Numbered from the stretch's first letter, positions 1-34,485 are shown. The stretch: DNA of 37,703 nucleotides from Bdellovibrionota bacterium (GCA_044352465.1 JBILDU010000016.1:1-37703), one strand, 5' to 3'. Program-made: numbers and translations. Notes: generated from the sequence alone by a model not told the origin.

Positions 1-1473
1 GTGGGTCCCATAGGCCCCGCTTAACAGCTCCCCGCTATGGCCATCGGATTGAGCAAAAAACGACTCACTCCACCGCTGATGCCCCTCCGTCACCCACGCC
101 AAGAGCTCCGCCTCATCCGCGATCGTTGCAAGTTGATGTGGGACCGCCATGAGCACCTCAACCCATTGGCGTGCGGCACGGCTCTCCGGAGCAAAATCGA
201 GCGGTAGTCGCACCGGCGCGAAATCGCTCTTACGAGAACCGTACACGAAGGCGCGGCGGATGTGCTGTCGCGCCGTAAAGGTGAACTCGCGTCCGAACTC
301 GGGAATAGAGTGAACAAAAGCCCGCGCACACAGTTGGGGGAATCGGGAGCGACGAATCCACTTCCCCCCCTCTTTGGTATGAACCATGACCTTACCGCTC
401 TCCAGACCGAGCACGACGACAGCAACCTCATACGGACTAAGGCGGGCGAGATCGGCGCGCATCATTGGGGTCAATACACGATGGAGTGCGGCGCGGAGCG
501 CCTCGGCATAGGCAGCTCCATCGAAAGGCTCGGCGTGGTTGCCAATGAGATCGGGGGGGTCCTCGCTCACCGTAAGCTCGTCACCACCAGAGATACAACT
601 GCGATAAAAACGGTGTAGTTCGAGAGCGACGCCAAGGTTAAGCCGCGCCTGCTCTCCGAGGGGCGCTCCTTTGAAAACCCGTCGTAGGTTCTCCTCCTCC
701 TCGGTGTCAGCGACATACGCTGGGTCATCACCTCGCTTCATCACGATACCAGCAAGAGCGGCCGTCGTCTCATTCAATGCCCCGAAGCTCTCAAGACATC
801 GCCCCAACTCACTTGATTTAACGACTGCAGCGGTCTCACGCTCCGGGCAAGCGAGACCGGGGACCAGGAGATCCGGCGCACCGGAATCGGAAATTTTCGA
901 CAGGTCGACCCGCGCCCCGGAGTAGAAGAGTCGCCCATTCCCGGTGACCCCCAAAAGGTCATCGCCGGTGTGAACGCGGAGCCGAAAGAAGCTCCACAAC
1001 ATTACCCCACCAACGACGACAAGCCAGAGACGCCACGAGCTGACGAGGAGAAAAACGATGCGGAGCGCACCACCGTGTAGAGCAAAATAGGTGCGCGAAA
1101 AGACACTCGGCTCCGAGTCGTCACGGAACTGCGCACTGTACGACGCACCACTGCGTAAGAGAATCTTGGAGACATGGTCGAAAAACTCGACCTCGGCTCC
1201 AGTGCCATGGCGCTGGAGCCACCCGGCGTAACGCTCTTGAGACGCCACAAAGGGACCGGTCCAGGCAAGTTGGGTGGCAAGAAGCTCGCGGCGCACCCGC
1301 GTGATACTCTCCTCGCCCGCCTGATAAGTAGAGAGGGTCGACACCAGGAAGAGGAGCAGTCCCAGGAAAGCGGCGATGGCCACTCCGAAGCGGACCATCG
1401 TGGCACGGGAACGTTTGAGCTCAGCGAACTCTCGCTCGCTCTCATGCGAAATCGAATCCCCGAAAGATGCCAC
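1..1473 (-). CDS. Large membrane-anchored hypothetical protein (>=491 aa, 3'-partial), divergent from the tra cluster
   Basis: Manual translation: GTG at 1473 preceded by GAGG, open frame to base 1 (VASFGDSISHESEREFAELKRSRATMVRFGVAIAAFLGLLLFLVSTL...LRIVFLLVSSWRLWLVVVGGVMLWSFFRL...GAYGTH). 2-3 hydrophobic segments, then a soluble domain. Absent from the ORF track because no stop lies in the window. Confidence 0.85.
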   Translation of the reverse strand, partial: MASFGDSISHESEREFAELKRSRATMVRFGVAIAAFLGLLLFLVSTLSTYQAGEESITRVRRELLATQLAWTGPFVASQERYAGWLQRHGTGAEVEFFDHVSKILLRSGASYSAQFRDDSEPSVFSRTYFALHGGALRIVFLLVSSWRLWLVVVGGVMLWSFFRLRVHTGDDLLGVTGNGRLFYSGARVDLSKISDSGAPDLLVPGLACPERETAAVVKSSELGRCLESFGALNETTAALAGIVMKRGDDPAYVADTEEEENLRRVFKGAPLGEQARLNLGVALELHRFYRSCISGGDELTVSEDPPDLIGNHAEPFDGAAYAEALRAALHRVLTPMMRADLARLSPYEVAVVVLGLESGKVMVHTKEGGKWIRRSRFPQLCARAFVHSIPEFGREFTFTARQHIRRAFVYGSRKSDFAPVRLPLDFAPESRAARQWVEVLMAVPHQLATIADEAELLAWVTEGHQRWSESFFAQSDGHSGELLSGAYGTH

Positions 1474-1675
1474 CAAAACCTCTTCAAATGCAGTGCTACG
1501 CTATTATGGGCACGTTATCGATTATCGGAACATAACGGATTGAATCGCATAGATTTTCGCTCGCAACCGCGCCCCCGACGAAATCGATTTGAACCGCCCT
1601 GAGTAACCTCAATCGCAGCCATCACCATAACATAGGTGATCGGTCGGTGTGTTCGACCGGATATTTACTCATGGG

Positions 1676-2098
1676 ATGACTGCGATGCGAAGCTTTAACA
1701 TTCTGTTTTTAATGGCTTTTTCTTTTACCATGGGGCTCGGAACGGCCGCCCACGCCGATGAGCCTGGGGGCTCCCCTCTCGACGGCAACGGCCCCCGAGC
1801 AGCGCTGGCACCTGCCGAGCGACCCCTCGGAATTGAGGCCGCCAAGGGGGAACGGCTTGCTGCGGCGGTGGGGCATTACGCCCGCGCACGTTCGCTTATT
1901 TTAGCGGCAATACGTGAATTTGATTCAGGAAAAAAGCTTGCCACGCCGGATGTCCTCATCGACAGCGCCGAGTGGCGGAGCTCGCTCATCGACCGGGCGA
2001 CCGAGCTTGAGAAGGTACTCGATCCGCAGCCGCGAATTACGCAGGGTGGAGTGAGATTTCAACCTGATACCCGACTTTTAGGTGAAGCGAATCGCTAA
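1676..2098 (+). CDS. Secreted/periplasmic helical hypothetical protein, first gene of tra operon
   Basis: Signal peptide MRSFNILFLMAFSFTMGLGTAAHA; co-oriented with downstream tra genes; start could be 1676 or 1685. Confidence 0.75.
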   Translation: MTAMRSFNILFLMAFSFTMGLGTAAHADEPGGSPLDGNGPRAALAPAERPLGIEAAKGERLAAAVGHYARARSLILAAIREFDSGKKLATPDVLIDSAEWRSSLIDRATELEKVLDPQPRITQGGVRFQPDTRLLGEANR

Positions 2099-2151
2099 TT
2101 AACGCCGATGAGAGTTTGCAGACTTTCTGCCGGCTATTTGAAACCAACGGT

Positions 2152-2553
2152 ATGGACGACGGATACGTAATTCCAGGACTGAACGAGGACTATACCCTCG
2201 CCGGAGCCAAAATCATGGAATGGCTGTCGGGCTGCACCATGGCGTTGGTGCTCCAAGAGTTGTTGTTTACCAACACGGCTCGGTCGATGCCGCTCATCAT
2301 CGCGATCGTTCTCATCACCACTTTCAGTATGGCGACTGCGCGGCGGAAGTTTCCCGATGAAGAACGGGGTCTTCGGAACGTCGTCATGCTCGCTATTGGT
2401 GTCCCGCCCCCCGGCATCCCTACACCGGCACCGCTCCAACCGTATTGGAGCGGTGGACCGGTGCGCGAATTCCCTGAAGCATCGTATTTCACGCAACTCA
2501 ATCTGGGCGAGCTCTTCACTGAAGAGGCCCGCGCGGAGCGAACGACGTCATGA
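2152..2553 (+). CDS. traL: TraL/VirB3-like inner-membrane protein
   Basis: N-terminal YVIPGLNEDY resembles the TraL 'YxIPxxLD' start; two TM segments; directly upstream of traE-traK-traB-traV order. Confidence 0.6.
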   Translation: MDDGYVIPGLNEDYTLAGAKIMEWLSGCTMALVLQELLFTNTARSMPLIIAIVLITTFSMATARRKFPDEERGLRNVVMLAIGVPPPGIPTPAPLQPYWSGGPVREFPEASYFTQLNLGELFTEEARAERTTS

Positions 2554-2593
2554 GGCAGGGACAGAGGCAAAAGAGGCGGTTGAGGTAACACTT

Positions 2594-3247
2594 ATGGGCA
2601 AGGCGCAAAAACTTCTCAAAGAAGCGAACGTCATCGATGCTCGCAAAGAAAGCGACACCCTCCGGTTGTGGGAAAACTACCGCGATCAAGCGATGCTCTG
2701 GCGCGCCCTCGCGATCATTCAGATCCCCACCACCGCCATTATCGCACTTCTATGCTTCACGCTGTACGCGAACCGTAAAATCGAGCTCAAAGTTCCGGCC
2801 AAGCCGCTCCCGGGTGTCTACGCCGCTCAAGAGATTCCCGACAGCGAGTTTACCGACGTCGCCACTAACTTTATCAACCTCATTGCCACCTACCAGCCTG
2901 CGGTGGCACGGCGTCAATTCACTCATGCACGCCAGATTCTTCAAGAGCCGATGCTCGAGCGATTTAACCGCGAAATGATGGTTACCGAGCTGAAGACTAT
3001 CGAGAGTACCAGTCGCACCCAGATCTTCTTCGTCGATCCGACCAAAACCCGGATCTTCCGCCAGGGCACCTCGGTCGAGATTACCCTCACCGGTGAGCGG
3101 ATGAAGATGATCGCCGGGCGTCAACTGCCCGCGGTCACCACCACGTTCAGTATCGCTATGACGACGATTCCGCGGAACGAACTGAACCCATATGGAATAG
3201 TCATTAACAACGTCGCCTTCGATAATATCGATGCGAACGGAGAATAG
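2594..3247 (+). CDS. traE: TraE-like (VirB8-fold) conjugal transfer protein
   Basis: ATG after GAGGT; one TM helix then periplasmic domain with FINLIATYQP and C-terminal NPYGIVI (VirB8-type NPxG motif); synteny. Confidence 0.75.
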   Translation: MGKAQKLLKEANVIDARKESDTLRLWENYRDQAMLWRALAIIQIPTTAIIALLCFTLYANRKIELKVPAKPLPGVYAAQEIPDSEFTDVATNFINLIATYQPAVARRQFTHARQILQEPMLERFNREMMVTELKTIESTSRTQIFFVDPTKTRIFRQGTSVEITLTGERMKMIAGRQLPAVTTTFSIAMTTIPRNELNPYGIVINNVAFDNIDANGE

Positions 3248-3277
3248 TTACACAGACGGAGCATTACGAGAGGACAT

Positions 3278-4078
3278 ATGAACCGCTTCATGAGAAAGAG
3301 CTTAAAGTTGTTCGCCGTAGCGTTGCTCTGCGGCACCCCGTGGTCGGCGTTTGCTCGCGACGTCCAGTACGAGAACTCCGAAATCCCGGTCTACGTCAGA
3401 CCCGGCGAACCCACGCAGATACTCTTCCCCGGCGATGTCGCCGGCGGAGTCAAACGCAGCCGGTCAGCTCTCTCGCTCGAACACAAAGATACTCAGCTCG
3501 TTATCTTCGCGAGTGAGGCGATAGCGGAAAACGGCGAGGCGATCATCGTCCGACTCCGTGACGGCCGCTCGTATTCGGTGCGGGTGAACAAAGCGGTTGG
3601 CGACGCCAAACGTGATGACGTCGTCCGAATTGAGGACGGGCGTGGCGCGATTATCGCCGATGCGAGTGAGGAGCCAGGATATAAGGAAAAGCGCTTCGAC
3701 TATGCTCCACCAACTCAGGTCAGTGGCCTGATGCGCGAAATGGTTCTCGCCGCGGAATTCGGCAAAAAATCGATCTCGGGCTACCGGATGAGCGAGCAGT
3801 ATAGGGGTGAGACCGTCCTGAACGATGGAACGCTCGAAGCAAAAATCGATAAGATCTTCATCGGACCGAACCTGTGGGGCTACGTCATCGACACGACTAA
3901 TCTGCTCGATCAGAGTCAGCGCATCAATGCGGCGTCGTTTCGTCTCGACGGAACGCGCGCGGTATCGGCCCAGCACTGGGAGCTGGCTGCGCGTCCGATG
4001 AATATCGAACAACAGATATCAGGAAAACACACCGGTAAAGTGTACGTCGTGACGCGCGCCAAGAAAGGTGCCAATTAA
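3278..4078 (+). CDS. traK: TraK-like (VirB9-type) outer-membrane core complex protein
   Basis: GAGGA RBS, signal peptide, beta-rich PGEPTQILFP...GRSYSVRV, C-terminal GKVYVVTR; lies between traE and traB. Confidence 0.75.
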   Translation: MNRFMRKSLKLFAVALLCGTPWSAFARDVQYENSEIPVYVRPGEPTQILFPGDVAGGVKRSRSALSLEHKDTQLVIFASEAIAENGEAIIVRLRDGRSYSVRVNKAVGDAKRDDVVRIEDGRGAIIADASEEPGYKEKRFDYAPPTQVSGLMREMVLAAEFGKKSISGYRMSEQYRGETVLNDGTLEAKIDKIFIGPNLWGYVIDTTNLLDQSQRINAASFRLDGTRAVSAQHWELAARPMNIEQQISGKHTGKVYVVTRAKKGAN

Positions 4079-4088
4079 GGGACGAAGT

Positions 4089-5276
4089 ATGAAGCAGAAA
4101 ATTCAAGACCTGATCCTGCTCCTGAAGAACGATAACCGGGCCAAGTTTGGCGCCGTCGGCATCGTACTTGCGGCGGTGTTCCTGCTGCAATCACCGGAGC
4201 CACGCCGTCGCCCCACCCCCCGCATGAACCAACAGATGGATACGATTGGGGATGCCGGGATGATGTCGCGCGACGAAGCGTACAACGACATCGTGCAACG
4301 ATTCTCAATGGATGTCGAGCAGATCAAGACCCAAACTCAACAGAACTCTGTGGAGATCAAAGAGGTCGTCAAGAACATGGCCGACAACGAGCAGCGTACC
4401 GCCGAGATCTTCAAAAAGATCCTGGAGCGCATGACGGAGAATCAGGCCGCTGCTGGCACAATCACTGCGGGCGGTGCGGTCGCGATGGATGTCAATCCAG
4501 TGGACGTCGGCGAGGCACCAGGCGCTATGACCGAGAGCCTCGCCACGAGTGAGGATTTCGCTCAGTTTGGTGATACTCAAGCGCCGGCCGTGGCACCACC
4601 ACCGCCGCCGCTCCCGTCCAAAGTGGCCTTCATCGGCGCGGGAGACTCGGTGCGAATCAAGCTCCTCGCTGGCGTCAATGCACCGACGGACGGAACCCCG
4701 TACCCGGTGGTTTTCAAACTCATTAGCGACGTCTACGGGCCAGATGGATCAGCTCTACCGCTCGGTGAGGCGCGACTGATCGCCGCTGCCCAAGGTTCAC
4801 TGACCGACTCCCGCGCGCTCTTCCGGATCACGACGCTCAATATCCGCTTGCCCGATGGACGCCGCAAGGTCTATCCGGTCGACGGCTGGATCGTCGGCGA
4901 GGACGGATTACGGGGGATGGAGGGCATTCTCCTTGACCCGATGGGTAAGGCGATCGCTGCAACCGGTATGGTCGCCGGGATCGGAGCGGTCGGCGAAGCC
5001 TTCGCCCAAGGAGAGACGAACACGAGCACCGGTGTTTTGGGGGATCAAAATACCGTGATCAACGGAGATCCATTCGTATTCGCTGGCGGCAAAGCGGTCG
5101 GTGGATTCGCCAAGGGCTGGAGCAAGATACTGGAGAAGCGGGTCGAGCAACTCGTGCCCCACGTCCAGGTGCTCTCGGGGCGTGAGGCCACCGCGGTCTT
5201 TGCCAAGTCGTTACCGGTCCACGACCTCCTCAACGCTCTTGATGAAGACGATGGCGGGATGAGCTCGCTTAACTAG
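4089..5276 (+). CDS. traB: TraB/VirB10-like core complex protein
   Basis: N-terminal TM, coiled coil, Pro-rich linker PPPPPLP, then LLAGVNAP...PVVF...GWIVGEDGLRGMEG and VPHVQVLSGREATAVF, typical of the TraB/TrbI domain. Confidence 0.9.
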   Translation: MKQKIQDLILLLKNDNRAKFGAVGIVLAAVFLLQSPEPRRRPTPRMNQQMDTIGDAGMMSRDEAYNDIVQRFSMDVEQIKTQTQQNSVEIKEVVKNMADNEQRTAEIFKKILERMTENQAAAGTITAGGAVAMDVNPVDVGEAPGAMTESLATSEDFAQFGDTQAPAVAPPPPPLPSKVAFIGAGDSVRIKLLAGVNAPTDGTPYPVVFKLISDVYGPDGSALPLGEARLIAAAQGSLTDSRALFRITTLNIRLPDGRRKVYPVDGWIVGEDGLRGMEGILLDPMGKAIAATGMVAGIGAVGEAFAQGETNTSTGVLGDQNTVINGDPFVFAGGKAVGGFAKGWSKILEKRVEQLVPHVQVLSGREATAVFAKSLPVHDLLNALDEDDGGMSSLN

Positions 5277-5302
5277 GGGATTCAGTTTTACGGAGTGATG
5301 AT

Positions 5303-5773
5303 ATGAAACGCGTAACGATTCACTTACCCGCCCGCGTGATGCTCGCCGCAGCGCTTCTGAGCCTGACCGCTTGCAGCGCCGCGAGCAACGTCTTGAACCC
5401 CTTCTACGAGCCCCCCGCTCCGGTAGCGCTCCTGGGAGAGAAGAACGACCACGCGCTCAATCAGGGGGGTACAAACCAGGAATCGGCCCGCGCGGCTCTC
5501 AACGCCATGACGACGTACCGACGGGCGCAGGACCCCGAGCCGACAAACCCGGTCATCCAACCGGCGGTTGTTCGGCTCATGTGGGTTCCCGATCATCTGA
5601 ACAAGAGCGGTGACCTTGTCCCGGCGCACTACTACTACTTAAAGGTGCTCCGCGATCGTTGGGCGGTCACCGATGCGTTCGAGCTCGAAGGTCAACTCAA
5701 CGGCCCCAATAAGGGCTCGAATCTTCCCTTCGTCTTCGGCGACGAGGCGGGGAAAGAGATGAGAGGCAATTAA
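5303..5773 (+). CDS. traV: TraV lipoprotein
   Basis: Lipobox LTAC; VVRLMWVPDHLNKSGDLVPAHYYYLKVLRDRW matches the TraV 'RxWxxP..GDL...Y....W' motif; follows traB. Confidence 0.85.
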   Translation: MKRVTIHLPARVMLAAALLSLTACSAASNVLNPFYEPPAPVALLGEKNDHALNQGGTNQESARAALNAMTTYRRAQDPEPTNPVIQPAVVRLMWVPDHLNKSGDLVPAHYYYLKVLRDRWAVTDAFELEGQLNGPNKGSNLPFVFGDEAGKEMRGN

Positions 5774-5792
5774 GGCGAGGCGTTGGTAGCGG

Positions 5793-6284
5793 ATGGAGAC
5801 TCGTATGAACGGCCTTCGACTGAGCATCTTCGGTATGATCGGCGTCCTCCTTGGGGCGTGCTCGACCACCGATGTCCCGCAATGGAAGCCGCACAAAGAG
5901 ACCCGCACCTACAGCGTGGCTCCGCGACAACTCCCCCCTGAGCCGACCTACAGTCGACTCCGCTGGGTACGCCCCCCCGAGGTCCTTCCCCATGCGCCGC
6001 GCGGTGGAGACGAAGCTCCGGCGATCGTGCCGGTGATGCATCTGGAGCTTAAGGATACAACCCTTGAGGAGGCCGCCCGCATTTTAGCGTCAGCTGCACA
6101 GTACTCCAGCTACTGCTCGAGCCTCATCGCGAAACAGACGTTGACGCTCAGTCGGCTCGGCACCATTGATGAACTCGGCAGTGAGGTCGAGAAGGCGGCG
6201 CAGATTCGAGTGATTATCGATCACGCTGGTCGACAGGTGAAGTTTTTAGCAAACCATGCGCCTGCGGCGCCGCGTTTGTACTAG
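5793..6284 (+). CDS. Lipoprotein with N0/STN-like (DotD-like) domain
   Basis: Lipobox LLGAC; LELKDTTLEEAARILASAAQY...LTLSRLGTIDELGSEV pattern resembles secretin N0/STN/DotD domains. Start may be the second Met. Confidence 0.6.
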   Translation: METRMNGLRLSIFGMIGVLLGACSTTDVPQWKPHKETRTYSVAPRQLPPEPTYSRLRWVRPPEVLPHAPRGGDEAPAIVPVMHLELKDTTLEEAARILASAAQYSSYCSSLIAKQTLTLSRLGTIDELGSEVEKAAQIRVIIDHAGRQVKFLANHAPAAPRLY

Positions 6285-6347
6285 GTTTTTAATGATCGGG
6301 GCCCGGGGGCACCTGATGAGCGAAAGGTTTTGGATGAGGGGTCAGCT

Positions 6348-9095
6348 ATGAGTATCAACCGAATTACACGCGAGCGGTTGTTTCAAGACGAGAAGCTCTT
6401 TAACTCGCTCTTGCCGTACGCGAAGTACGATGATGATCACAAACTCTTCGTGCACTCCGATGCGTCGTTGTGGTCGATCTGGGATCTCCAACCTCTGTGG
6501 CTCACGAAGACCTCTGACTCGGAAGCCTTCCAGATCTGCGCGAGCATTCAGGAGATGCTCGATGCCCTCGACCACACTATCTCAGCGCAGTTTGTTTGGA
6601 TAACGACGTTCGATGTCGACGACCTCATTTCGGACTCTCTCACCAAATATCCGACCTCTGGTCCGGCGGGCTGGATGGCTCGACGATGGCTCCGCGGATT
6701 GAAGCAAACCTCGCAGAGCGCATCGTATCACCGGCGTCCACGCAAACTCCGCCTCCTCGTGGCATTCCGCTACGATCCGCCGTGGAAGGCGACGGGCATC
6801 ATGCAGCAGATCTCGCGCTCAATCTCGATTTTATTGTCGGGCAAGGTCGGGGTCACCGCGACGCAACGTCGCGCGGAGTATAATACGTACGCTAATAAAT
6901 TTAAGGGTATTATCGACGGAACCTCCGCCAAACTCGGCGACCTCGGATTTCGTCCCCACCGCGTGGATGGGCAGGAGCTCATCAATGTTCTCTATCCCCT
7001 CCTCAATCGCCGCAGCATCAAGTCGGGGAAATTTAAGCGCGGACGCCATTCGGCGATCCCCGTTCCGGTGTACGATCCGGACGATATCTTAGCGAATCAG
7101 ATTTCGGAAACTCCAGCCGAGCACCCGAAGAACGGGATTATCAAGAAAGATGGCCGCGTTTTCCGCTCGGTCTCGATGGTGAAACCACCGAAAAACTGCC
7201 TCCCGCTGATGGTCTCGCCGCTCCAATCGGCGGCCTATGAGAATATCCTCAGCGTCACCTTCTCAAAGGACACCTCGGAAAAACAACTAAAGCGGCTCGA
7301 CGCCCTCGACAACTCGCTCGGCTTCCGCGAGCGCAATCCTATGGGTCGGGGCAATCAAAAGGTTCAACACCAGGTGGCTGCCGTCCGAGCGGCTCGCTCA
7401 GAGCTGTATAACGGCACCGCGCAGATCGTTCGGGTCGGGGTGCATCAGACTTTTATCTGTCAGACCGAGGATGAAGCAGTTCGCGCTGCGGCCGAAGCGG
7501 TTGCAACGTTTCCGCAACTCAACGGCGCGCGCGGCATGGTCCACGAGATCTCGGACATGGCGGTAGCGATCAATTCGCTCCCCGGGTGTTACGACCCCTC
7601 AACCGATGGATCCGGCTGGACGAACGTGCTCAAGTCATCGCTCGGCGTGCGGCTCTTTCCCTTGTGGGGTAATTGGCGCGGAAGCTCAGGCTCGCAGATA
7701 GTACTCCCGAGCCTGTGGAACCGTGAACTGATCGGTTTTGACCTGTACGACTCAAACGTCGCACCGAACGTGCTTATTAGCGGTGTCTCCGGTGCCGGTA
7801 AGAGCTACCTTCTCTGCTTCCTGCTGATCACGATGAATCGCGGCCACTACGCCACCCTCTCAAACGGACAGGTCATTGAGCGGCAACCGATTACCTTCGT
7901 CTTCGACAAAGGTATGACCGGCCAACCGTGCGGTTTCGAGAAGGTCGCTAAGCTCTTCGGTGGGCGTATCTACGAGGCGACCCCGTCACGAGCACCGGCG
8001 ATGAACTTCCTCGCTCGGTTGGGCGAGACTCCACCTGATCCGATGAACGATGACTATAAAGATCTCATCGATATGTCGGCCGATATCGTCTGTGATATGG
8101 CGACCGATGCTCACCGCGCCCCCGATCGCCTCGAGCGCTCGGCGGTGGTCGACTCGATCGTCGAGGCCCATCGGGTTTATCGCAGTGGGCCGATGCGCCG
8201 GGAGTTGATCTTGAGCGATATCGTCTCAGTGCTCCGCGCACCGAAGCGAATCGATGAGAATCAAGATGCGGCGGGCCGTCGGCAGCGCGTCGCGCTCCTC
8301 ATCGGTGATTACTACGGCGATGGAACGTACGCCCGCTTCTTCGATCGACCGGGCTCCTTAAAGCTTAAAGAGCGCTTCATCGTATTCGACTTGAAAGCCC
8401 TGAGCCGTAACCCCGACCTCCAACGGGTGTTCCTCAAGGTGGCGATGCTGTGGGCCGACACGGTCATGAACGACCCGGCGGAGCTCGATACCCGCAAGAT
8501 TCTCGTGTTCGACGAAGCGCACGATCTTATCGGCAAGACCGCAGCGAATACGATCGAGACGGCTTTCCGTCTCTACCGGAAACGTAAAGGTATCGTCATC
8601 GCGGCATCCCAGTCAGGTGAGGACTTTTATGTCGGCTCGGGAGGACAGGCGATCGTCCAAAACAGCGCCCATAAGATCTTCCTGCGCCAAGATCCGAGTA
8701 AGTTCCACTACACGGCGCAAGCGTTCAACTTGACACCGCAGCAAGCGGACGTCATTTTGCGGCTCCGCACCGTCAAAGGGATCGAGTCGCAATTTTACAT
8801 CCTCTCGGATATCGGTGAAGGGGCGCTTGTACTCCCGCTTGAACCAGCTTTCTACTGGGCGAGTACGAACAACGGTGACGACAACCAACTGTTCTCCGAT
8901 GTCCTCGCTCAGACGAACAACGACTTCTGGGCCGCGCTTGAGCGGGTGGTCCGAATCGCCCCGAACGGTGCGAAATCGCTCCAGCAGGCGGTGGCCCGAG
9001 CAAGCGAAATCGGAGCCACGAGCAGCCCCGAGGCGGGAGTCTCTAACATCGTTATGAACCTCATGACCGGTGCCGCCGGGACAGGAGAAAATTAA
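6348..9095 (+). CDS. traC: TraC/VirB4 type IV secretion ATPase
   Basis: ~915 aa; NVLISGVSGAGKS Walker A, FVFDKG, FIVFDL, ILVFDEAH Walker B, RLYRKRKG..IAASQS; position after traV. Confidence 0.93.
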   Translation: MSINRITRERLFQDEKLFNSLLPYAKYDDDHKLFVHSDASLWSIWDLQPLWLTKTSDSEAFQICASIQEMLDALDHTISAQFVWITTFDVDDLISDSLTKYPTSGPAGWMARRWLRGLKQTSQSASYHRRPRKLRLLVAFRYDPPWKATGIMQQISRSISILLSGKVGVTATQRRAEYNTYANKFKGIIDGTSAKLGDLGFRPHRVDGQELINVLYPLLNRRSIKSGKFKRGRHSAIPVPVYDPDDILANQISETPAEHPKNGIIKKDGRVFRSVSMVKPPKNCLPLMVSPLQSAAYENILSVTFSKDTSEKQLKRLDALDNSLGFRERNPMGRGNQKVQHQVAAVRAARSELYNGTAQIVRVGVHQTFICQTEDEAVRAAAEAVATFPQLNGARGMVHEISDMAVAINSLPGCYDPSTDGSGWTNVLKSSLGVRLFPLWGNWRGSSGSQIVLPSLWNRELIGFDLYDSNVAPNVLISGVSGAGKSYLLCFLLITMNRGHYATLSNGQVIERQPITFVFDKGMTGQPCGFEKVAKLFGGRIYEATPSRAPAMNFLARLGETPPDPMNDDYKDLIDMSADIVCDMATDAHRAPDRLERSAVVDSIVEAHRVYRSGPMRRELILSDIVSVLRAPKRIDENQDAAGRRQRVALLIGDYYGDGTYARFFDRPGSLKLKERFIVFDLKALSRNPDLQRVFLKVAMLWADTVMNDPAELDTRKILVFDEAHDLIGKTAANTIETAFRLYRKRKGIVIAASQSGEDFYVGSGGQAIVQNSAHKIFLRQDPSKFHYTAQAFNLTPQQADVILRLRTVKGIESQFYILSDIGEGALVLPLEPAFYWASTNNGDDNQLFSDVLAQTNNDFWAALERVVRIAPNGAKSLQQAVARASEIGATSSPEAGVSNIVMNLMTGAAGTGEN

Positions 9096-9119
9096 GATCG
9101 AGCTTTAAAGGAGTGTACC

Positions 9120-9413
9120 ATGAAAACGAGAGTATCGACCGGCCTGTGGGTGGTCTTGAGCGCGGTGAGTTTGGTAGGATTGACGGGGTGTGCGACCCGA
9201 ACGGTCGTGCGCACCGAAACCGTTGAAGTTCCCTCCGATCGAAGCTACGCCCGGGCGATCCCTGGTGCGGTGGAATATGTTTGGGAGGAGCCGATGGTAG
9301 ATGTCGTCGAAGTTCCCCCGGGGCTCGATCCAGAGGGACACTACTACCGCCCCGCGCACCAACAGGTGCAGGAGATCCGCCAGGGGCGTTGGAAGTACTA
9401 CGGCGAACGTTAA
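9120..9413 (+). CDS. Small lipoprotein with TraV-like C-terminal motif
   Basis: AAGGAG RBS; lipobox LTGC; VEVPPGLDPEGHYYRPAHQQVQEIRQGRW. Confidence 0.8.
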   Translation: MKTRVSTGLWVVLSAVSLVGLTGCATRTVVRTETVEVPSDRSYARAIPGAVEYVWEEPMVDVVEVPPGLDPEGHYYRPAHQQVQEIRQGRWKYYGER

Positions 9414-9462
9414 TTCGCTGGGGCGCGCGCTCGCATGAGCGTACCCCTCGCTGAGGTGATAT

Positions 9463-9912
9463 ATGGGCTTGAATCTCAAAGCGCTGGCTGCACCGTTCAC
9501 GAACCGGGTGCATCTCGTCACGATTGTGTTGAGTGGGATGTTGTTCGGTGCTTTCCGCCTCTCCGGTGGCGAGTTCACGATCAAGACTCGTGACTCGATC
9601 GGAGAGCGTAGCTCCACATCGGCACCGAGCGCTCGAGCCACTTCGGGACGTCGTCCTACCGCTGCTGAGGAGCGAGGGAGTCAGCTCGATGGGTTGCTCG
9701 CGAAATCTCCGCGCATCGAATATGGGAACGGCGAACCGGCCAACCGCGTCCCCACGACGGTCAGGCCTCCAAGTAGGCTCACCGACCAATCGTCAAACAT
9801 CGACGAGCTCGTCGATGTTGGCCGCGAGTCGGCACCCCGCCCAGCCGCCCCGCGCTCTCGAGATAACGGGAGCGGACTGAACGACATCGAGAAGCAACTC
9901 GGCCTACGCTAA
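9463..9912 (+). CDS. Membrane-anchored, largely low-complexity hypothetical protein
   Basis: GAGGTG RBS; N-terminal TM; Ser/Arg/Pro-rich body; C-terminal helix LNDIEKQLGLR. Confidence 0.75.
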   Translation: MGLNLKALAAPFTNRVHLVTIVLSGMLFGAFRLSGGEFTIKTRDSIGERSSTSAPSARATSGRRPTAAEERGSQLDGLLAKSPRIEYGNGEPANRVPTTVRPPSRLTDQSSNIDELVDVGRESAPRPAAPRSRDNGSGLNDIEKQLGLR

Positions 9913-9926
9913 AAAAGGAACATGCT

Positions 9927-10463
9927 ATGGCGAATGCCGAGGGAACCATTCCTATCCCCAAGGTATGGCGCTCCGAGATCGGAGGGCTCATCGTTTTCGG
10001 TCTCTCTCTGATGCTCGGAGTTGGGCTCTCCCAGCTCTTTCCGAATACGATTCTGCGGGGGGAGGTACTCCCGTTGGGATTATCGATCGTTTATCTCAAA
10101 CTCCCCTTGTGTTGGCTTATCCCCTTAAGCTGCTGGATTAACTTGCTTTATCGCATGTACAACGTGCGTTACTCGGCTGATACCCGGGGGATCCAAGCAG
10201 TTTTAGGGATACTTTCCCTGAATCAAAGAATCATCCGAGTACGATACGAGGATGTACGGAGTATCGAAACGGATCAGACCGTTGTTGGGCGCATGCTTGA
10301 CGTGGGAGCCGTGGAGATCGGGACCGCCGGAACCGCTGGGGTGGAGCTCACCCTGGCCGGAATCGGCGCCCCCAAAGAGGTACAAGAGATGATCCAGGCC
10401 GAACGGGACAAACGGCAACGCCTTGGTCAGCGGGGGGTCGGTCAGACGGCCCTCGGGGGATAA
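9927..10463 (+). CDS. Bacterial PH-domain (bPH_2/YdbS-type) membrane protein
   Basis: Two TM helices then RY...GILS...VRYEDVRSIETDQTVVGRMLDVGAVEIGTAG...IGAPKEV, the bPH_2 pattern. Confidence 0.85.
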   Translation: MANAEGTIPIPKVWRSEIGGLIVFGLSLMLGVGLSQLFPNTILRGEVLPLGLSIVYLKLPLCWLIPLSCWINLLYRMYNVRYSADTRGIQAVLGILSLNQRIIRVRYEDVRSIETDQTVVGRMLDVGAVEIGTAGTAGVELTLAGIGAPKEVQEMIQAERDKRQRLGQRGVGQTALGG

Positions 10464-10489
10464 AGACCCAAGAAATTGAAGAGCGACCT

Positions 10490-11692
10490 ATGAATACTCG
10501 AAACGGCCAGAAAAAGATCCTCGCGGCGCTCCTCATCGGAGCGATAGCAGTGCAGCCTGTCGCAGCGCAACAAGAGGTAAATCTTGAGGACCTGCGTCGA
10601 GATCTCCGCCAGGCCGGCTCGCTCCCAGCTGGCTTTGAGCCGCTTGATGATACGGATATCGCCGCCGGCGAGGCTTCGCGCAAACTCGAGGAGGCGGAGG
10701 CGCAGCTTTTAAGACAGATCAATTCAGGCAGTCCAGAGTCAGCCCGAGCGGTGATAGACGATGGATTCGGACCAAATCCGGTCGGCCGAACGAACGAGGA
10801 GACCGCCGAACCTGTGAAAGCAGCGGTGGGAACACGGTTTCTGGAAAGCGTGCGCCCAGTCGATGCAGAACCAGCGATCGAGAGCCCCGCTGAGGTGGTA
10901 GCAGCTCAGGTCGTGGCGCAGGATCAGAAGCTACCAGCCACCCTACCGGCGAGCGAGACCGAGGAACCGATTATCTCCCCGAAACCCTCACGTAAGGGCA
11001 AGGTCGAACCCAAAACTCAGGTAGCCACGATCCGTCGTGCTGCAATGGTCTCGACTGATGGTCCGAGCACCGATGAGGATTCCGTTGCCGAGTTACAGGA
11101 CCTCATCAAGCGCCACGGCAAGATCAAAGCCGACCTGCAACGTCAGACCGATGCGGCATCGAAGTACAAGCGCAAAGCCGATGATTTGAGCTCTCAGTTG
11201 AAAAACTCTGAGGCCAAGGTGAAAGCGTTGGAACAGGAACTGACCGAAGCACGCAACCGCTTAATCATCTCCGAAACGGAGGTCGAGCGGCTCTCCGGGC
11301 TGATGGTAACGACGGTCCGAAGTTCGAAGTCGCTCGCAAAGTTGGGCACGGCGCCGAGCGATGGAGCTGCGGTTGCCCCGCGAGCCGCGGCTATAGTTCC
11401 AAGCCGCCGACCGCTGGAAGCGCAGCCCGCTGAGGAGATGCCGGTGGCAACCGTCGTCGTTGAGAAGGCAAATCTCCGCACCGGTCCGGGTGCCGAGCAC
11501 TCACCGCTGATGTCGGTAACCCGTGGCACACGGCTCCTCGTCGAGATTCGGCGTGGGGAGTGGTACCGCGTGGTCTCTCCGAGCGGAACCCGCGCCTGGG
11601 TATCAGCCGACGTCGTCGCGTTCGGTTCCTCCCCCCAAGGGAGCCCCTCGAGAACGGTAAAGGTGAAAGGCTTCGACCCGTCACTCGAATAG
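10490..11692 (+). CDS. Secreted coiled-coil protein with C-terminal bacterial SH3 domain
   Basis: Signal peptide (…VQPVAA); heptad region; ANLRTGPGAEHSPLMSVTRGTRLLV...EWYRV...AWVS is an SH3b signature. Confidence 0.88.
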   Translation: MNTRNGQKKILAALLIGAIAVQPVAAQQEVNLEDLRRDLRQAGSLPAGFEPLDDTDIAAGEASRKLEEAEAQLLRQINSGSPESARAVIDDGFGPNPVGRTNEETAEPVKAAVGTRFLESVRPVDAEPAIESPAEVVAAQVVAQDQKLPATLPASETEEPIISPKPSRKGKVEPKTQVATIRRAAMVSTDGPSTDEDSVAELQDLIKRHGKIKADLQRQTDAASKYKRKADDLSSQLKNSEAKVKALEQELTEARNRLIISETEVERLSGLMVTTVRSSKSLAKLGTAPSDGAAVAPRAAAIVPSRRPLEAQPAEEMPVATVVVEKANLRTGPGAEHSPLMSVTRGTRLLVEIRRGEWYRVVSPSGTRAWVSADVVAFGSSPQGSPSRTVKVKGFDPSLE

Positions 11693-11731
11693 CCGATTCG
11701 AGGAAAGTGGGTCGCTCTTGAAATCGACTCT

Positions 11732-12274
11732 ATGGCGCAACAACCAGCACAGAGAGGCACAAGAACCGTACGGCTCTTAAGTTCAGCTCTCGGCACCGTT
11801 GCGCTCCTTCTGTTGCTCGGCTCTCCCGTCCCCCAGGTTCAAGCGGTCCGACTACGCGCCGCACCGGCGTTTGTCTACCCTCTGATGGCGCCACGCATAT
11901 CGAGCGGATACGGGGTTCGAAACCATCCCGTCACCAAAGTTCACCGCCACCACTCCGGAATCGATTTGGCCGCTCCAGCCGGCTCACCGATCCGCGCTAT
12001 TCGAGGTGGCAAGGTTATCTTTGCTGACTCACTCGGCCCATACGGGAAACTCATCGTGATCGATCACGGGGATGGATTTGTGAGCCGCTACGGCCACTGT
12101 GAAAGCTTAAAAGCCTCGATCGGCGAGCGGGTCACCGCTGGCGAAGTTATCGCCACCGTTGGCCAAAGCGGACGCACGACCGGCCCCCATCTCCACTTTG
12201 AGGTATTGCTCAACGGGAAACCGTTTAACCCAGAGCACCTGATCCCCGGACTCGGCGCCGAGGCTGAAGGATAA
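11732..12274 (+). CDS. M23 family peptidoglycan endopeptidase
   Basis: HSGID (HxxxD), YGH and TGPHLHFEV (HxH) zinc motifs intact; N-terminal hydrophobic anchor. Confidence 0.95.
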   Translation: MAQQPAQRGTRTVRLLSSALGTVALLLLLGSPVPQVQAVRLRAAPAFVYPLMAPRISSGYGVRNHPVTKVHRHHSGIDLAAPAGSPIRAIRGGKVIFADSLGPYGKLIVIDHGDGFVSRYGHCESLKASIGERVTAGEVIATVGQSGRTTGPHLHFEVLLNGKPFNPEHLIPGLGAEAEG

Positions 12275-12671
12275 GCGGTAAGCCGGAGTGCCCCCCCGGT
12301 CATTATGAAGTCCGACAAGCGTCAGCTTCTCAGCGCAAAGAGCGGAGGAAGCAAAACGTCATAAAACTGGGTCGATTGAGTAAGCGATGGTGGTAGCGGC
12401 GTACCATCTCGTGGGGTGATTCTCCCCCCGCACTGCAGCTTTGAGTCATCCACCGAGGGGGGCGCAAAGCAGCTCGCGCTGCTTGCAACGAAATAACCCC
12501 TTGATACGAATCGATTATTATTTTTAAAATGCCTCACAAAAAACCGGCGCCGAAATGCAACACATATCATCCCCTTCCCCATAACTCTTTATGAAACTGG
12601 GGCGCTTGTCGTAATGCGACTTGTCGTCGGTAAAAAATGGTGTAATTCACTAAATCTGTATCAGGAATAAT

Positions 12672-13076
12672 ATGTTCAAGAAAATAGTCGCGAAAGTTAA
12701 CAACAGCTACACGAAGTTTGGGCAGGTAGTTGGCAGTGCTGTACACGCGCCGACCCGCGCTCAATCCCAAGCGATGCTCTTCACCCTCGGCGTCGGCCTC
12801 CTGGCTGTTGGCATGAGCGGTGGTGTCGTGGCGCAAACCGACCTTGTCGACGTTGAGTACAACGACGTACGGTTGGCGAACGCCGTTGACCGAATCTTCA
12901 CCTACCTTGAAGGTAGCTTCGGGGCGTTGATCATGGTGGCCTCCGGTCTGGGAGCCATCATGAGCGCCGCGTTCGGTCAGTATAAGGCCGCGCTCGGATG
13001 TTTGGTGGTAGCTGTAGGAGCGTTCATCCTTCGCTCAGTTCTCTCCACCTTCTTCAACACCGAGTCGCTCGAGTAA
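12672..13076 (+). CDS. VirB2/TrbC/TraA-like pilin
   Basis: AGGA RBS; long leader, then IFTYLEGSFGALIMVASGLGAIMSAAFG...LVVAVGAFILRS (two hydrophobic helices of T4SS pilins); AT-rich upstream region and own terminator. Confidence 0.8.
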   Translation: MFKKIVAKVNNSYTKFGQVVGSAVHAPTRAQSQAMLFTLGVGLLAVGMSGGVVAQTDLVDVEYNDVRLANAVDRIFTYLEGSFGALIMVASGLGAIMSAAFGQYKAALGCLVVAVGAFILRSVLSTFFNTESLE

Positions 13077-13096
13077 TATCACAGCGATTCTGTGTC

Positions 13097-13130
13097 GAAA
13101 GGGGCGCCCTCGGGCGCCCCTTTCTTTTTT
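13097..13130 (+). terminator. Rho-independent terminator after pilin
   Basis: GAAAGGGGCGCCC-TC-GGGCGCCCCTTTC followed by T6. Confidence 0.92.
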
Positions 13131-13271
13131 GAGGTTTCCCGGCACTGCTCTCAGCCCCCCGCCTCAGCGGAGATCCCAAGTGGTGTTTTTGGCTTCAGGG
13201 AAAGCGGTTGTAAAGTTCCCGAGACGTAGTAAGATCCCCCCGGTTACGTATTTTCGGAACAATTCGTCATC

Positions 13272-15371
13272 GTGGTCCCCGAACTCCCGCCGGAACAAAA
13301 CGGTCCCCGTTCAAACGATCCCCGTAACGGCGGCGACGGTGCTCAAGGGGACGACTATGGCGCCTTCGGATCCACCCAAGGGCTGAGAAACTCGTGGGCC
13401 GCGAAGCTGGAATACGCCATCCAGCATCTCCAACGCCCTCTATTACTGAGGCTCATCCGTGAAATCGAGGAGGACCCTACCCTTTCGGTTGAGGTCCGCG
13501 CTCACATCGCAAACTCCCCGATTAACATCGTCCTACGGGGAGAGCCACTCTCAGCTCCACCACTCTTTGCCTATCTTTATAGGGAGAGCATCCCGGCAGC
13601 GGGGATTATCTCGAGCTTTATTAAGATCGGCGCCGATATCCGCAAAGCTGACTCACTGGAGACCCATCTTCTCGACCTCGTCATTCCCCGCTCGGGGAAC
13701 CCCGAACTCATCCACGAATTAGTCGAGCGGGGGGCGCGGGCTCCACGCCAAGGGGCGCAGTTCTCGATCGATGTCGTTACTGAGGAGTCTCCGAACCGCA
13801 CCTATCGATTCCCTAATCAACGTATTGATCCGGAACCGCGCCGTGAGACCGTCGACTTCCGTGGATTGGTGAAGGCATTAAACCGGCTGTATCAAGATGC
13901 GCCGGAGGATACTCAGCACGAATGTCGTAAGTTGATTCAAGCGACTGGTCGCGTCTACGACGGCTATGTGTATCTGCGTGCCACTGAGGAGGCCACGCTC
14001 CTTTCACCCGAACTACGGGCGCGGACCGCGGTGGGGCGGCGTTTTGTCGAGCTCACGGCCTTGATCTTCGGAGGGAGACATCCGCGGGAGATCGTCGGGA
14101 CGATTCAACGGATCGAAGGCCTGATGGATAACCACCCGGATATCCACCACTGGCATCAAAGCGAACCGGAGCTGGCGCTCCTCGTGGGACATCCGGGGAT
14201 GAATTATACCGATCCGAACGACATCGAGGTCGGCAACGCGACCACCCGCTCCCTCACCTCGATCAATCGAATCTACTTCAAAGGGATTCACTCCCTTGAA
14301 CCGAACGCCCGGGAAACGATCGGCAAACTTGGCTTCCTCACCCACGCATTCAAATTTTTTCGCTACGATACCGAGCAGCGCAGAGTCTGGCTCGGTGACG
14401 GTGGTGCGATCGTTCCGGGCTCCAGTATGCTCGAGCAATTTGGTTTTGAGCGGGTTTCCCCGCGCCCGACCGACCGCCGGGTCGACGAGCCAACCCGCGA
14501 CCATCTCGGCACCGGGTTTGTCATGAAGCCTTTTAGCCCAGTTCTGACATCAGGATGGCTCGCCCGCGAACGGGATCTCGATCCAAGTTTCTATATCGAG
14601 TTTCGCCGCGCCTATATTCTCGCGAGCCATCCAGGCCTGGGAACCCTGCTGATACGTAACTCTTCGCCGCTTTTCGGTCGCGATACGTTCCCCCACTTCG
14701 CCTACTGGGGCCCAACGCCGGTCTCGCGTCGATATCCTCCGCTGGATCTCCTTCATCCCGAACATATGATCGCCTCAGGCCGACTACGTCCTGTTCTCAG
14801 CGCAGAGGGTAAGGACTATCGAACAATCTCCCTTGGGTTAATCCAATCGAAAAGCGTCACCCAACTCGTGAACGGCGTCATCGCCGTCAAAGATGGTCTC
14901 CGGCGCTGGAAGTTCGATACCGATGCGGACAGCGCCTGGGAAATCGATCCTCAAACTGGAGTGCGGTATCCGAGCGGCGCAGGGATGCACCTCTCGGAGG
15001 GCTTCCCTGCCCTCGTTCAGCACCTCGTTGAGCGCTACCGTTTCATCGATGCCGCTGAGTCGAGTGGGTATGATGTCGCCGAACAACTGCCCGACCTGGC
15101 CTTCTACCACCCGTACCTTCCTGCTTGGCATCCCCACACGTACACGCTCACGCCGGTCCCCAATGGCCCTGAGACGACAAGGAGTCAGCTCACGCTCTCC
15201 CGCGAGGTACTCGATGGTCTCAAAAAACTCGCCGATCGGAACCTCAGGCGCTCCGATGTAGCTACGTTAGAGCGACTCGGCGTCATGCAATTTTTAATGG
15301 CGGGCGCCCAAGCCCAAGCGGAGCTGGTGATGGTTCCCCCCGCGGCAAAATCGCTGGGTGCGCAGGAGTGA
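13272..15371 (+). CDS. Large hypothetical protein with degenerate ankyrin-like repeats near the N-terminus
   Basis: 699-aa ORF; IISSFIKIGADIRKADSLETHLLDLVIPRSGNPELIHELVERGA resembles the ankyrin consensus; disordered N-terminus, no signal peptide. Confidence 0.75.
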   Translation: MVPELPPEQNGPRSNDPRNGGDGAQGDDYGAFGSTQGLRNSWAAKLEYAIQHLQRPLLLRLIREIEEDPTLSVEVRAHIANSPINIVLRGEPLSAPPLFAYLYRESIPAAGIISSFIKIGADIRKADSLETHLLDLVIPRSGNPELIHELVERGARAPRQGAQFSIDVVTEESPNRTYRFPNQRIDPEPRRETVDFRGLVKALNRLYQDAPEDTQHECRKLIQATGRVYDGYVYLRATEEATLLSPELRARTAVGRRFVELTALIFGGRHPREIVGTIQRIEGLMDNHPDIHHWHQSEPELALLVGHPGMNYTDPNDIEVGNATTRSLTSINRIYFKGIHSLEPNARETIGKLGFLTHAFKFFRYDTEQRRVWLGDGGAIVPGSSMLEQFGFERVSPRPTDRRVDEPTRDHLGTGFVMKPFSPVLTSGWLARERDLDPSFYIEFRRAYILASHPGLGTLLIRNSSPLFGRDTFPHFAYWGPTPVSRRYPPLDLLHPEHMIASGRLRPVLSAEGKDYRTISLGLIQSKSVTQLVNGVIAVKDGLRRWKFDTDADSAWEIDPQTGVRYPSGAGMHLSEGFPALVQHLVERYRFIDAAESSGYDVAEQLPDLAFYHPYLPAWHPHTYTLTPVPNGPETTRSQLTLSREVLDGLKKLADRNLRRSDVATLERLGVMQFLMAGAQAQAELVMVPPAAKSLGAQE

Positions 15372-18237: not shown

Positions 18238-19383
18238 CTACTTGCGGCTCTGGATGAGCTCATCCAATTCAGCCTTCACCCGGGGTAGGATTTCTTCGTA
18301 GGAGAAAGCTCCGATAAGCTCTCCACGACGCTTAAAGTTCACGTGATTCGGAGCGCACCATAGCCCGATATCAGCATCATCGGTTTCCCCTGGGCCGTTG
18401 ACCCGGCAACCCATGACGGCGATGGTGATATTCTCATTCGCCGCGAAGGCGGAGAGCTCCTTCACCTTCTCGGCGAGCTCCACAAAGCTTTCGTTCTCAA
18501 CCCGCGAACACGAGGGGCACGAGATGATATTGAGACCCGCCTGTTCAAAACGGGGGACGGACCTGAAGCGACCGGCGTACACGTCCTCGATGATTCGTTT
18601 GCCGAGAACCACCTCTTCGAACTTGCGCGCATATGGGAGCGTGAGGGAGACCCGCACAGTATCGCCGATTCCTTGTGCCAGCAGATTCTCAAATGCGACC
18701 CGGGTCTTCACCTCCCCCATCGGCAACATGCCAGCTTCGGTAACTCCGAGATGGAGCGGAATATTCGGATAATCAGCGGCAAATTTGCGGTTGATATCGA
18801 TGACATCGTTCGGGTCGGAGCTCTTCAGCGAGACCACAAATCGCTCGAAATTAAGGTCGCCCATATATCCGATATGCTCGCCCACTGAGCTCAGAGCCGC
18901 TGAGAGCGAGTCCTCTCCGCGCTCCGACTGAGCGGGGTCGAGGGAGCCAAAGTTGACACCGATGCGCACCGCACAATCGTGCTCGCGAGCCGCGTTCACG
19001 ATGTACTTCACCTTTTCGAATACCGGCACCTCCTTTTCATGGTGATGCAGATGGCCTGGGTTGTAGCGAATTTTTTGGACGTAGGGGGCTACTTTCGACG
19101 CGAGCTTATAGCTCTCCTGAAGATCGACGACGATACGAGCGGTCGTGCGCGGCCGAATCGCCGCAAGTGCCTCGACATCTTTCCGGCTATCGACCGCGAT
19201 TCGGATAATGTCCGCCCCGTGCTCCTGGAGCAGAGCTATCTGCCCAAGCGTGGCTTCGATATCTTGGGTGCGGGTCGCACACATCGACTGCACTGCGATC
19301 GGATGGGCCGAGCCGAGGGCGATATCTCCAACCGGAACGCTGCGGGTCTTACGTCGTTGAATCCGTGATTTCAGGTCGGTCAT
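18238..19383 (-). CDS. ispG: (E)-4-hydroxy-3-methylbut-2-enyl-diphosphate synthase
   Basis: [61 protein letters not shown]; likely start [14 protein letters not shown]. Confidence 0.97.
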
Positions 19384-19530
19384 CGTTCGCCTCACTACAC
19401 TCTGATACTCAATAACTCCCGCGCACCCTGCAAAAGGATTAGCTCTCCATCTTACATAGTGGTATTGAACACGGGGTTTGAGATTTACTACCATTCGGGT
19501 GAAGTTTTTGCACCTCCGGGAGGTCGACCG

Positions 19531-34336: not shown

Positions 34337-34342
34337 ATTCAA

Positions 34343-34371
34343 ACTGTAGCTTTAAAGCTACGATATGTCAA
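34343..34371 (-). promoter_or_regulatory. TA promoter with palindromic operator
   Basis: Minus strand TTGACA-17 bp-TACAGT; perfect palindrome GTAGCTTTAAAGCTAC (34346-34361) overlaps the spacer and -10. Confidence 0.85.
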
Positions 34372-34396
34372 TTGAATAAATGGTGGCATTCTGAGA

Positions 34397-34452: not shown

Positions 34453-34485
34453 CGCAGGACTCATACATGGAAACCAAGACATACC

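Follow-up and report, generated by a model that had tools for sequence, protein, structure and literature searches.

A probably host-owned F-lineage type IV secretion system with a linked coupling ATPase and a predicted Whirly-fold protein in uncultured Bdellovibrionota

The DNA examined here is a 37,703-nucleotide stretch of the genome of a Bdellovibrionota bacterium (GCA_044352465.1, JBILDU010000016.1:1-37703; "the window"), i.e., the entire contig C101 of a 3.13-Mb assembly in 170 contigs that is 94.9% complete. Towards its left end it carries the genes of a type IV secretion system (T4SS) of the F lineage (mating-pair formation class F, MPF-F), which appears to have been reduced to an envelope core and to serve the cell rather than a mobile element. 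Its envelope core, pilin, wall-hydrolase module and linked, intact coupling ATPase are all conserved as housekeeping genes are. We are highly confident that this is a host-owned machine dependent on a type IV coupling protein (T4CP). That its cargo is nucleic acid is a more tentative proposal, to which we give somewhat less than even odds, and the full statement, i.e., a host-owned, coupling-protein-dependent exporter of F lineage with this cargo included, is held at a probability of about 0.45.

Results

A coupling ATPase and a Whirly-fold protein lie beyond the contig edge

The tra cluster is a single tight operon on the + strand (1649-13076, from open reading frame calls). A second operon runs divergently from position 1476 and would supply the substrate side of the system, with a TraI-like protein, a coupling ATPase with intact Walker motifs and a Whirly-fold protein. 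Correcting the first reading of this DNA, the frame at 1-1476 (-) at the window edge is part of the system. The gene continues onto another contig, C140, where its tail occupies C140:1-456, and in relatives the same gene is followed, on the same strand, by an ATPase of ~720 amino acids (aa). The genes of this operon are as follows.

1..1476, - strand: TraI-like protein, first 492 residues, running off the left end of the contig
C140:463-2622, same strand as the edge gene: linked T4CP, TraD/DotL-like, 69.7% identical to the ATPase of related locus L001
C140:2833-3318, directly after the T4CP gene: Whirly-fold protein, 161 aa, (beta4-alpha)x2 in a model with a mean predicted local distance difference test (pLDDT) score of 88.2

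Judged by its profile matches (TraG-D_C, E 1.2e-6; TIGR03743 SXT_TraD, E 3.9e-18), the product of the C140 gene belongs to the type IV coupling proteins. Its single sequence match in the PDB is IcmO/DotL (phmmer E 5.9e-12, over ~84 residues around Walker A), and its Walker A (GVGKT) and Walker B (IDEG) motifs are invariant in 22 sequences. To follow the genes of the system through the lineage, we used a genome set for the phylum to which GTDB assigns the window, with 124 species from one class, 36 families and 64 genera; the linked T4CP gene is found in 114 of them and in 69 of the 73 that are of high quality. The system had been described preliminarily as one with no DNA-transfer genes. That absence is an artefact, because the contig ends there: the T4CP gene sits just past position 1, preceded by a gene resembling those of the MOBH3 relaxase clade and followed by the Whirly-fold gene on C140.

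In its predicted structure the 161-aa protein has a Whirly fold, the type of fold seen in binders of single-stranded DNA or RNA, with binding itself being a prediction. The top Foldseek matches are PBF-2, StWhy2, AtWHY1-3, PUR-alpha and MRP1/2 (best E 2.3e-4, template-modelling [TM] scores of 0.58-0.61, probability 1.0). Mean column identity across 16 orthologues is 81%, and the gene is present in 114/124 genomes (72/73 of high quality). Modelled as a complex, residues 95-650 of the T4CP and the Whirly-fold protein scored 0.00, a result that is uninformative both ways. Past the Whirly-fold gene, C140 carries ordinary chromosomal genes (APH-family kinase, RND efflux pump, giant adhesin).

The edge gene encodes a protein of ~684-706 aa at full length in relatives. 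Its model (pLDDT 80.3) comprises transmembrane helices, a disordered loop, a helical domain and an alpha/beta C-terminal domain; the predicted-disordered loop (GDDxLGQTGNGR...) is the most conserved stretch of the protein. According to passages of PMC6736028, 2IPQ and 3KQ5 are the two solved TraI_2/TraI_2_C structures of the MOBH3 clade, members of which lack the HD and 3H motifs, for which "an alternative function" is suggested. The same passages state that GGI-like F-type systems, i.e., those resembling that of the gonococcal genetic island (GGI), cluster a MOBH TraI with TraD, with some of these TraI proteins being membrane-associated. The model of the TraI-like protein would fit such a motif-less MOBH3 protein, its helical domain being HD-like and its C-terminal fold resembling TraI_2_C; this fit is suggestive because of the position beside TraD, the two shared folds and the lost motifs. 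The position of the expected HD/3H site reads LALE(A/S)GK. Pfam searches on 30 members plus 21 distant members gave nothing relevant, and no match to the protein was found by tblastn against plasmids or by Foldseek at E<=1e-3.

A second T4CP (VirD4/CD1115-like, NF045973, E 4e-53) is encoded on contig C105 amid housekeeping genes, and is found in 108/124 genomes (67/73 of high quality). In one relative (G082:C4, L077; 7679-11277, -), the second T4CP gene is followed 15 bp on by holB, for the delta' subunit of DNA polymerase III. A T4CP2-holB operon as a general feature was rejected, as the arrangement occurs in G082 but was not seen in two other genomes nor in this one.

Other coupling-type ATPases were encountered outside these two sites. 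A third T4CP-like ATPase of 755 aa (TrwB_AAD_bind, DUF87) is encoded on contig C148 of this genome (G000, 5856-8123; L074), between panE and a gene for a metallo-beta-lactamase-fold protein; it is patchy (10/21 relatives, with at most 6 matches per genome) and is probably unrelated to the T4SS cluster. Separately, the linear megaplasmid pLBX of the cyanobacterium Leptolyngbya boryana (NZ_AP014640.1, 352855-354924; L080) carries an orphan T4CP gene whose product is 61% identical to the linked T4CP; it adjoins a protelomerase gene, and T4SS genes were not found within 20 kb of it. The pLBX copy looks as if the coupling ATPase had crossed between phyla by itself; four L. boryana plasmid records hold an orphan at this identity.

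The channel core is of F type

A scan of species genomes yielded 66 related loci, many of them shortened by contig ends; the gene counts given below per 66 loci are from tblastn. The left part of the + strand operon reads as follows.

1649..2098, + strand: exported helical 149-aa protein whose gene opens the tra operon, with a signal-peptide-like N-terminus in translation (47/66 loci)
2116..2553, + strand: TraL/VirB3-like small membrane protein, by position and membrane topology only (47/66 loci, upstream of TraE)
2594..3247, + strand: TraE, VirB8-like bitopic protein; TIGR02761, E 8e-4 (49/66 loci)
3278..4078, + strand: TraK, VirB9-like outer-membrane core protein, exported; TIGR02756, E 1.4e-3, residues 32-232, a weak match (53/66 loci)
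4068..5276, + strand: TraB, VirB10/TrbI family; PF03743, E 1.3e-11, above cut-off, and PRK13729, E 1.7e-5 (56/66 loci)
5303..5773, + strand: TraV lipoprotein, VirB7-like; lipobox LTAC, PF09676, E 5e-3 (59/66 loci)
5793..6284, + strand: 163-aa lipoprotein; lipobox LGAC (59/66 loci)
6330/6348-9095, + strand: TraC, VirB4 ATPase of the F-type branch; PF11130, PF19044, TIGR02746

Core genes TraE, TraK, TraB and TraV thus stand in the conserved F order, with a VirB4 of the TraC-F branch. Profile matches support these identities, well for TraC and TraB and modestly for TraE, TraK and TraV. TraC scores above cut-off with PF11130 (57.6 bits, E 1.5e-15), and its best NCBIfam match is TIGR02746 (E 8.4e-56), but under the curated cut-off. 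Orthologues in L001 match PF05309 for TraE (26.1 bits, E 6.5e-6, above cut-off), TraK_N for TraK (E 3.2e-4) and PF09676 for TraV (22.2 bits, above cut-off). The TraL-like protein fits in position, size and hydrophobic segments; 0/24 orthologues match TraL models, and hhalign against plasmid TraL gave a probability of 0.7%. The first protein of the operon has no Pfam or NCBIfam match.

The 163-aa lipoprotein is possibly DotD/TraH-like with a domain of the secretin-N0 type, a lead that comes from the ESM Atlas, where 19 of 30 matches are DotD clusters (score 0.96), and from secretin_N/STN-like models at TM 0.43-0.49; a PDB profile search gave no genuine DotD match. Its equation with the gene between traB and traV of an Aromatoleum plasmid was rejected (probability 1.4%).

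The system is chromosomally fixed and vertically inherited

The machine is fixed in the chromosome and inherited vertically, and is no integrative and conjugative element (ICE) or other mobile element. TraC is found in 121/124 genomes of the phylum, including all 73 of high quality, at 57-96% identity, and more than 120 protein clusters reach at least 70% identity to it. The three genomes without a TraC match are 77-89% complete. One of these cases, G058, was considered as a natural loss and rejected: TraC, both T4CPs and the Whirly-fold gene were not found in this 82%-complete genome, and the region is probably unassembled, since the search for ispG next door failed to find that gene as well. 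All 66 related loci belong to genomes of uncultured bacteria, which bear labels such as Bdellovibrionota, Oligoflexia and "Deltaproteobacteria" and in many cases come from lakes.

Gene order is identical in 39 of the 40 loci of at least 15 kb. The exception, L060 (CALHSA010000002.1, an uncultured bacterium), encodes a TraC that is 56% identical, with the other cluster genes not detected around it. In 17 genomes with both genes, TraC and IspG distance matrices correlate (r 0.93, Mantel p 0.001), and the mean pairwise distance is 0.187 for TraC versus 0.252 for IspG; as IspG is a linked marker, this agreement shows co-divergence with the chromosomal neighbourhood. The GC content of the cluster is 0.55-0.61, versus 0.573 for the genome (contig standard deviation 0.022), and no tRNA gene was found anywhere in the window. 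These results bear out the preliminary description in (i) its gene order, traL-E-K-B-V-(lipoprotein)-C followed by five non-canonical genes, a pilin, orphans and ispG, (ii) the absence of a compositional break, and (iii) its view of a chromosomally fixed machine, with order retained in relatives beside ispG. It had also reasoned that a relaxase and T4CP close by within an attachment-site (att)-bounded ICE, or a patchy spread among close relatives, would speak against that view: a T4CP and a relaxase-like gene do adjoin the cluster, but they are not enclosed in an ICE bounded by att sites, and the spread is universal instead of patchy.

The alternative that the cluster is what remains of a conjugative element that integrated and is now in decay could draw on the many F-type genes and the recognisable relaxase that were not found, as well as on an integrase core of insertion sequence (IS) type (rve) at 34498-35043, ~21 kb from the cluster, contrary to the initial claim that the window held no integrase. 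We consider this alternative close to refuted: every gene is intact, TraC shows stronger conservation than IspG, all 73 high-quality genomes, from 36 families, hold the system at one chromosomal site, and its composition is that of its surroundings.

Canonical conjugation parts were not found

Searches of the 94.9%-complete genome gave no match for TraU, TraH, TraN or TraG_N (PF06834, PF06122, PF06986, PF07916), with TraW and TrbC not searched; for TraF, PF13728 gave only a 16.6-bit thioredoxin-like match, and a genuine TraF was not found. Positive controls in Escherichia coli gave matches in these F-specific searches. Relaxase models for MOBP, MOBF, MOBQ and MOBH (PF03432, PF08751, PF03389, PF07514) had 0 matches genome-wide, with MOBV, MOBC, MOBT and MOBB not searched. 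On both counts, i.e., the missing F-specific mating genes and the missing canonical relaxase, the first account thus stands for the families covered. That the missing parts lie at a second site was rejected: hidden Markov models derived from Tra proteins of this lineage match only the one tra cluster in the genome, and what the second site does hold is coupling ATPases, without TraW/U/N/F/H/G. The predicted folding of the 172 bp that separate the two divergent operons is not better than that of shuffled sequences (z -1.3).

Lineage-specific additions, pilin and right-hand flank

Downstream of TraC, the operon continues with accessory genes and ends in the pilin gene, after which the flank begins.

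9120..9413, + strand: 97-aa lipoprotein; lipobox LTGC, no family match (59/66 loci)
9463..9912, + strand: Ser/Pro/Arg-rich low-complexity 149-aa protein; no family match, poorly conserved (15/66 loci)
9927..10463, + strand: bacterial PH domain (bPH_2) membrane protein; PF03703, E 6e-8 (27/66 loci; two paralogues elsewhere in the genome)
10490..11692, + strand: exported coiled-coil protein with a C-terminal SH3b domain of cell-wall-binding type; PF08239, E 2.4e-9, plus coiled-coil matches (52/66 loci)
11732..12274, + strand: exported M23 peptidoglycan endopeptidase; PF01551, E 1.9e-33 (46/66 loci, at the same position)
12501-12530, + strand: promoter-like site of the pilin gene (site prediction)
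12672-13076, + strand: pilin, VirB2/TrbC type; PF04956 in orthologues, ends the operon (34/66 loci)
13097-13124, + strand: strong terminator 3' of the pilin gene (site prediction)
13272..15371, + strand: 699-aa orphan; no family match (0/66 loci)
15658..18090, - strand: 810-aa conserved neighbour, kinase-like N-terminal part and helical C-terminal part (25/66 loci, between pilin and ispG)
18238..19494, - strand: ispG, housekeeping, conserved right-hand flank; PF04551, E 5e-98 (3' of the cluster in 21/66 loci)

The periplasmic additions particular to this lineage are two extra lipoproteins, the bPH membrane protein, and the coiled-coil/SH3b protein together with the M23 wall peptidase, the last of which probably takes the place of a VirB1-type wall hydrolase.

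As for the pilin, 22 of 27 orthologues match PF04956 TrbC/VirB2 (best E 2.9e-5), and their alignment has a leader of ~55 aa followed by two hydrophobic helices; hhalign against plasmid TraA reached only 7.7%, and a PDB profile search gave chance matches only. A pilin with a promoter-like site of its own and a strong terminator might suggest that the machine serves as a pilus, for adhesion, or for the uptake of DNA, in the manner of Trw or ComB, with nothing moved outward. The F retraction and mating-pair genes that were not found would agree with such a function, and a nucleic-acid-binder fold would suit uptake as well. We nevertheless consider this very unlikely, given the linked T4CP with intact Walker motifs in 114/124 genomes; the ComB uptake and Trw adhesion systems are not known to have a coupling ATPase.

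The 699-aa orphan, between the pilin terminator and the 810-aa gene, is an insertion particular to this genome and outside the conserved system, because none of the 66 related loci has it. In the alignment consensus of the 810-aa protein, the catalytic loop is altered from Asp to His (HGHISPSN) with APE retained; kinase matches are faint only, a long helical repeat region follows the kinase-like part, and the protein may be a pseudokinase scaffold. Further right, a stand-alone 129-aa protein (25151-25540, -) matches FlhB/YscU (PF01312) in its C-terminal portion only, over positions 262-334 of the model. At the contig's right end, 33718-35043 (-) holds a HigA-type antidote gene (PF21716) beside the IS-type integrase core (rve, rve_3), in DNA of lower GC content, about 0.50-0.52. 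An expression look-up listed no RNA holder for positions 3200-13150 of the window.

Discussion

In the mechanism that we favour, the M23/SH3b wall module would open the peptidoglycan, with the outer channel built by TraK, TraB and TraV together with the extra lipoproteins. TraC would power assembly and pilin extraction, while the coupling ATPase would feed substrate into the channel. The substrate would most likely be nucleic acid in single-stranded form, or else a nucleoprotein, with the TraI-like and Whirly-like proteins handling it, and its destination would be either the outside or a touched cell. Such a cargo is favoured because the T4CP is flanked by folds of TraI type and Whirly type. 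A bolder version, in which a new, phylum-wide T4SS subtype is a core organelle that exports single-stranded nucleic acid (chromosomal single-stranded DNA [ssDNA] or RNA) or injects it into other cells independently of a relaxase, is unlikely in our estimation. In this version, a minimal F-type channel would be combined with the membrane-anchored, motif-less TraI-like protein, both coupling ATPases and the Whirly-type single-strand binder.

Several findings weigh against a nucleic-acid exporter. The TraI-like protein has neither an invariant Tyr nor an HD dyad in 30 sequences, and its nicking activity is therefore doubtful; nor were 3H or active-site Tyr/His motifs found. None of the 30 members matches TraI_2 or TraI_2_C, PDB profile searches at E<=1 and at E<=10 returned 0 matches, and the family amounts to only 282 clusters among 1.84 billion representatives. 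The Whirly-fold protein has no Pfam match at E<=0.1, Whirly PF08536 included, and a Whirly fold alone proves no function. F-like mating is unlikely, since searches for the pilus and mating-pair genes specific to F had no success. No conserved origin-of-transfer-like repeat was detected in the divergent intergenic region, and the first 260 bases downstream of the edge-gene start held no block conserved between the window and 33 related loci. Moreover, among solved structures the linked T4CP is closest to DotL, which serves as coupling protein in a system that secretes protein effectors.

This last point leads to the rival that the machine injects or secretes protein effectors for predation on, or attachment to, other cells. 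The two T4CPs would then receive the effectors, and the TraI-like and Whirly-fold proteins would serve as adaptors, chaperones or cargo. By its NCBI labels the lineage belongs to Bdellovibrionota, a largely predatory group, and the second T4CP is conserved alongside the DotL/IcmO-like one. The DotD/TraH clusters matched by the 163-aa lipoprotein in the ESM Atlas point the same way, though the DotD link has no sequence support. Likewise, a TraI-like protein without any catalytic motif would accord with the "alternative function" raised for MOBH3 in the passages of PMC6736028. However, no effector candidates were identified, and a fold of Whirly/PUR type is typical of nucleic-acid binders rather than of T4SS chaperones. 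We regard effector secretion as unlikely, while granting it real weight, and retain export of single-stranded nucleic acid as the preferred reading.

For that reading, the nearest known case may be found in Neisseria gonorrhoeae, by analogy with the ssDNA that the gonococcal island releases: the T4SS of this island combines an MPF-F core with a MOBH TraI and TraD, and secretes ssDNA. As described in passages of PMC6736028, GGI-like systems are likewise chromosomal, with an F-lineage core and a membrane-tied TraI-type protein beside a TraD-type ATPase. The system described here differs in that (i) TraU, TraH, TraN, TraG_N and TraF were not found, (ii) the TraI-like protein is without HD and 3H motifs and possesses genuine transmembrane helices, and (iii) a Whirly-fold gene is added and the whole is universal across the lineage rather than an island.

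With the MPF-F plasmids and ICEs (F, pED208, SXT/R391; Aromatoleum EbN1 plasmid 1), the system shares the order traL-E-K-B-V...C plus pilin, a divergently placed T4CP operon and TIGR02746 as the best family of TraC. Yet this TraC is 22-27% identical, over the aligned part, to any plasmid TraC, and the linked T4CP is at most 29.6% identical to any T4CP inside a plasmid T4SS. In contrast to those systems, no canonical relaxase or TraU/N/F/H/G was found here (TraW was not searched), the extra lipoproteins and wall module are lineage-specific, and inheritance is vertical.

Dot/Icm of the Legionellales and rvh of the Rickettsiales are host-owned T4SSs kept across whole deep lineages. They resemble the present system in being a lineage-wide core trait, and further likeness lies in its DotL-resembling T4CP and possible DotD-like lipoprotein; they differ in that the core here is of F type, not I or P type, and in the Whirly-fold and TraI-like proteins of the locus. 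The MOBH3 proteins 3KQ5 (Coxiella) and 2IPQ (Salmonella) share the HD-like and TraI_2_C-like folds as well as the HD/3H loss, as far as the passages of PMC6736028 describe them. Relative to these proteins, the TraI-like protein has no detectable sequence relation and adds an N-terminal transmembrane domain and the conserved disordered loop containing GNGR.

Among the titles and abstract openings of literature on type IV secretion in Bdellovibrionota, no published description of the system was found, nor was literature joining Whirly proteins and conjugation. What is new here is a variant of the F-lineage T4SS that is owned by its host, has fewer core parts, adds some found only in this lineage and carries an unusual substrate module. 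Its unusual parts are a minimal channel without F pilus-dynamics genes, a motif-less TraI-type protein, two T4CPs and a Whirly-fold protein. These make two questions testable, namely what the smallest working F-type machine is, and whether a T4SS can transport nucleic acid without a classical relaxase.

Ultimately, lineage-fixed secretion systems such as Dot/Icm and rvh define how their bacteria live. The present system would be the first of F lineage to span a phylum-level group, one that has no cultured member, and it offers a marker with which to study how an abundant freshwater lineage lives, possibly by predation or parasitism. If the bolder version above is true, these bacteria would possess a host-encoded, relaxase-independent means of nucleic-acid delivery that is tied to their cells' way of life.

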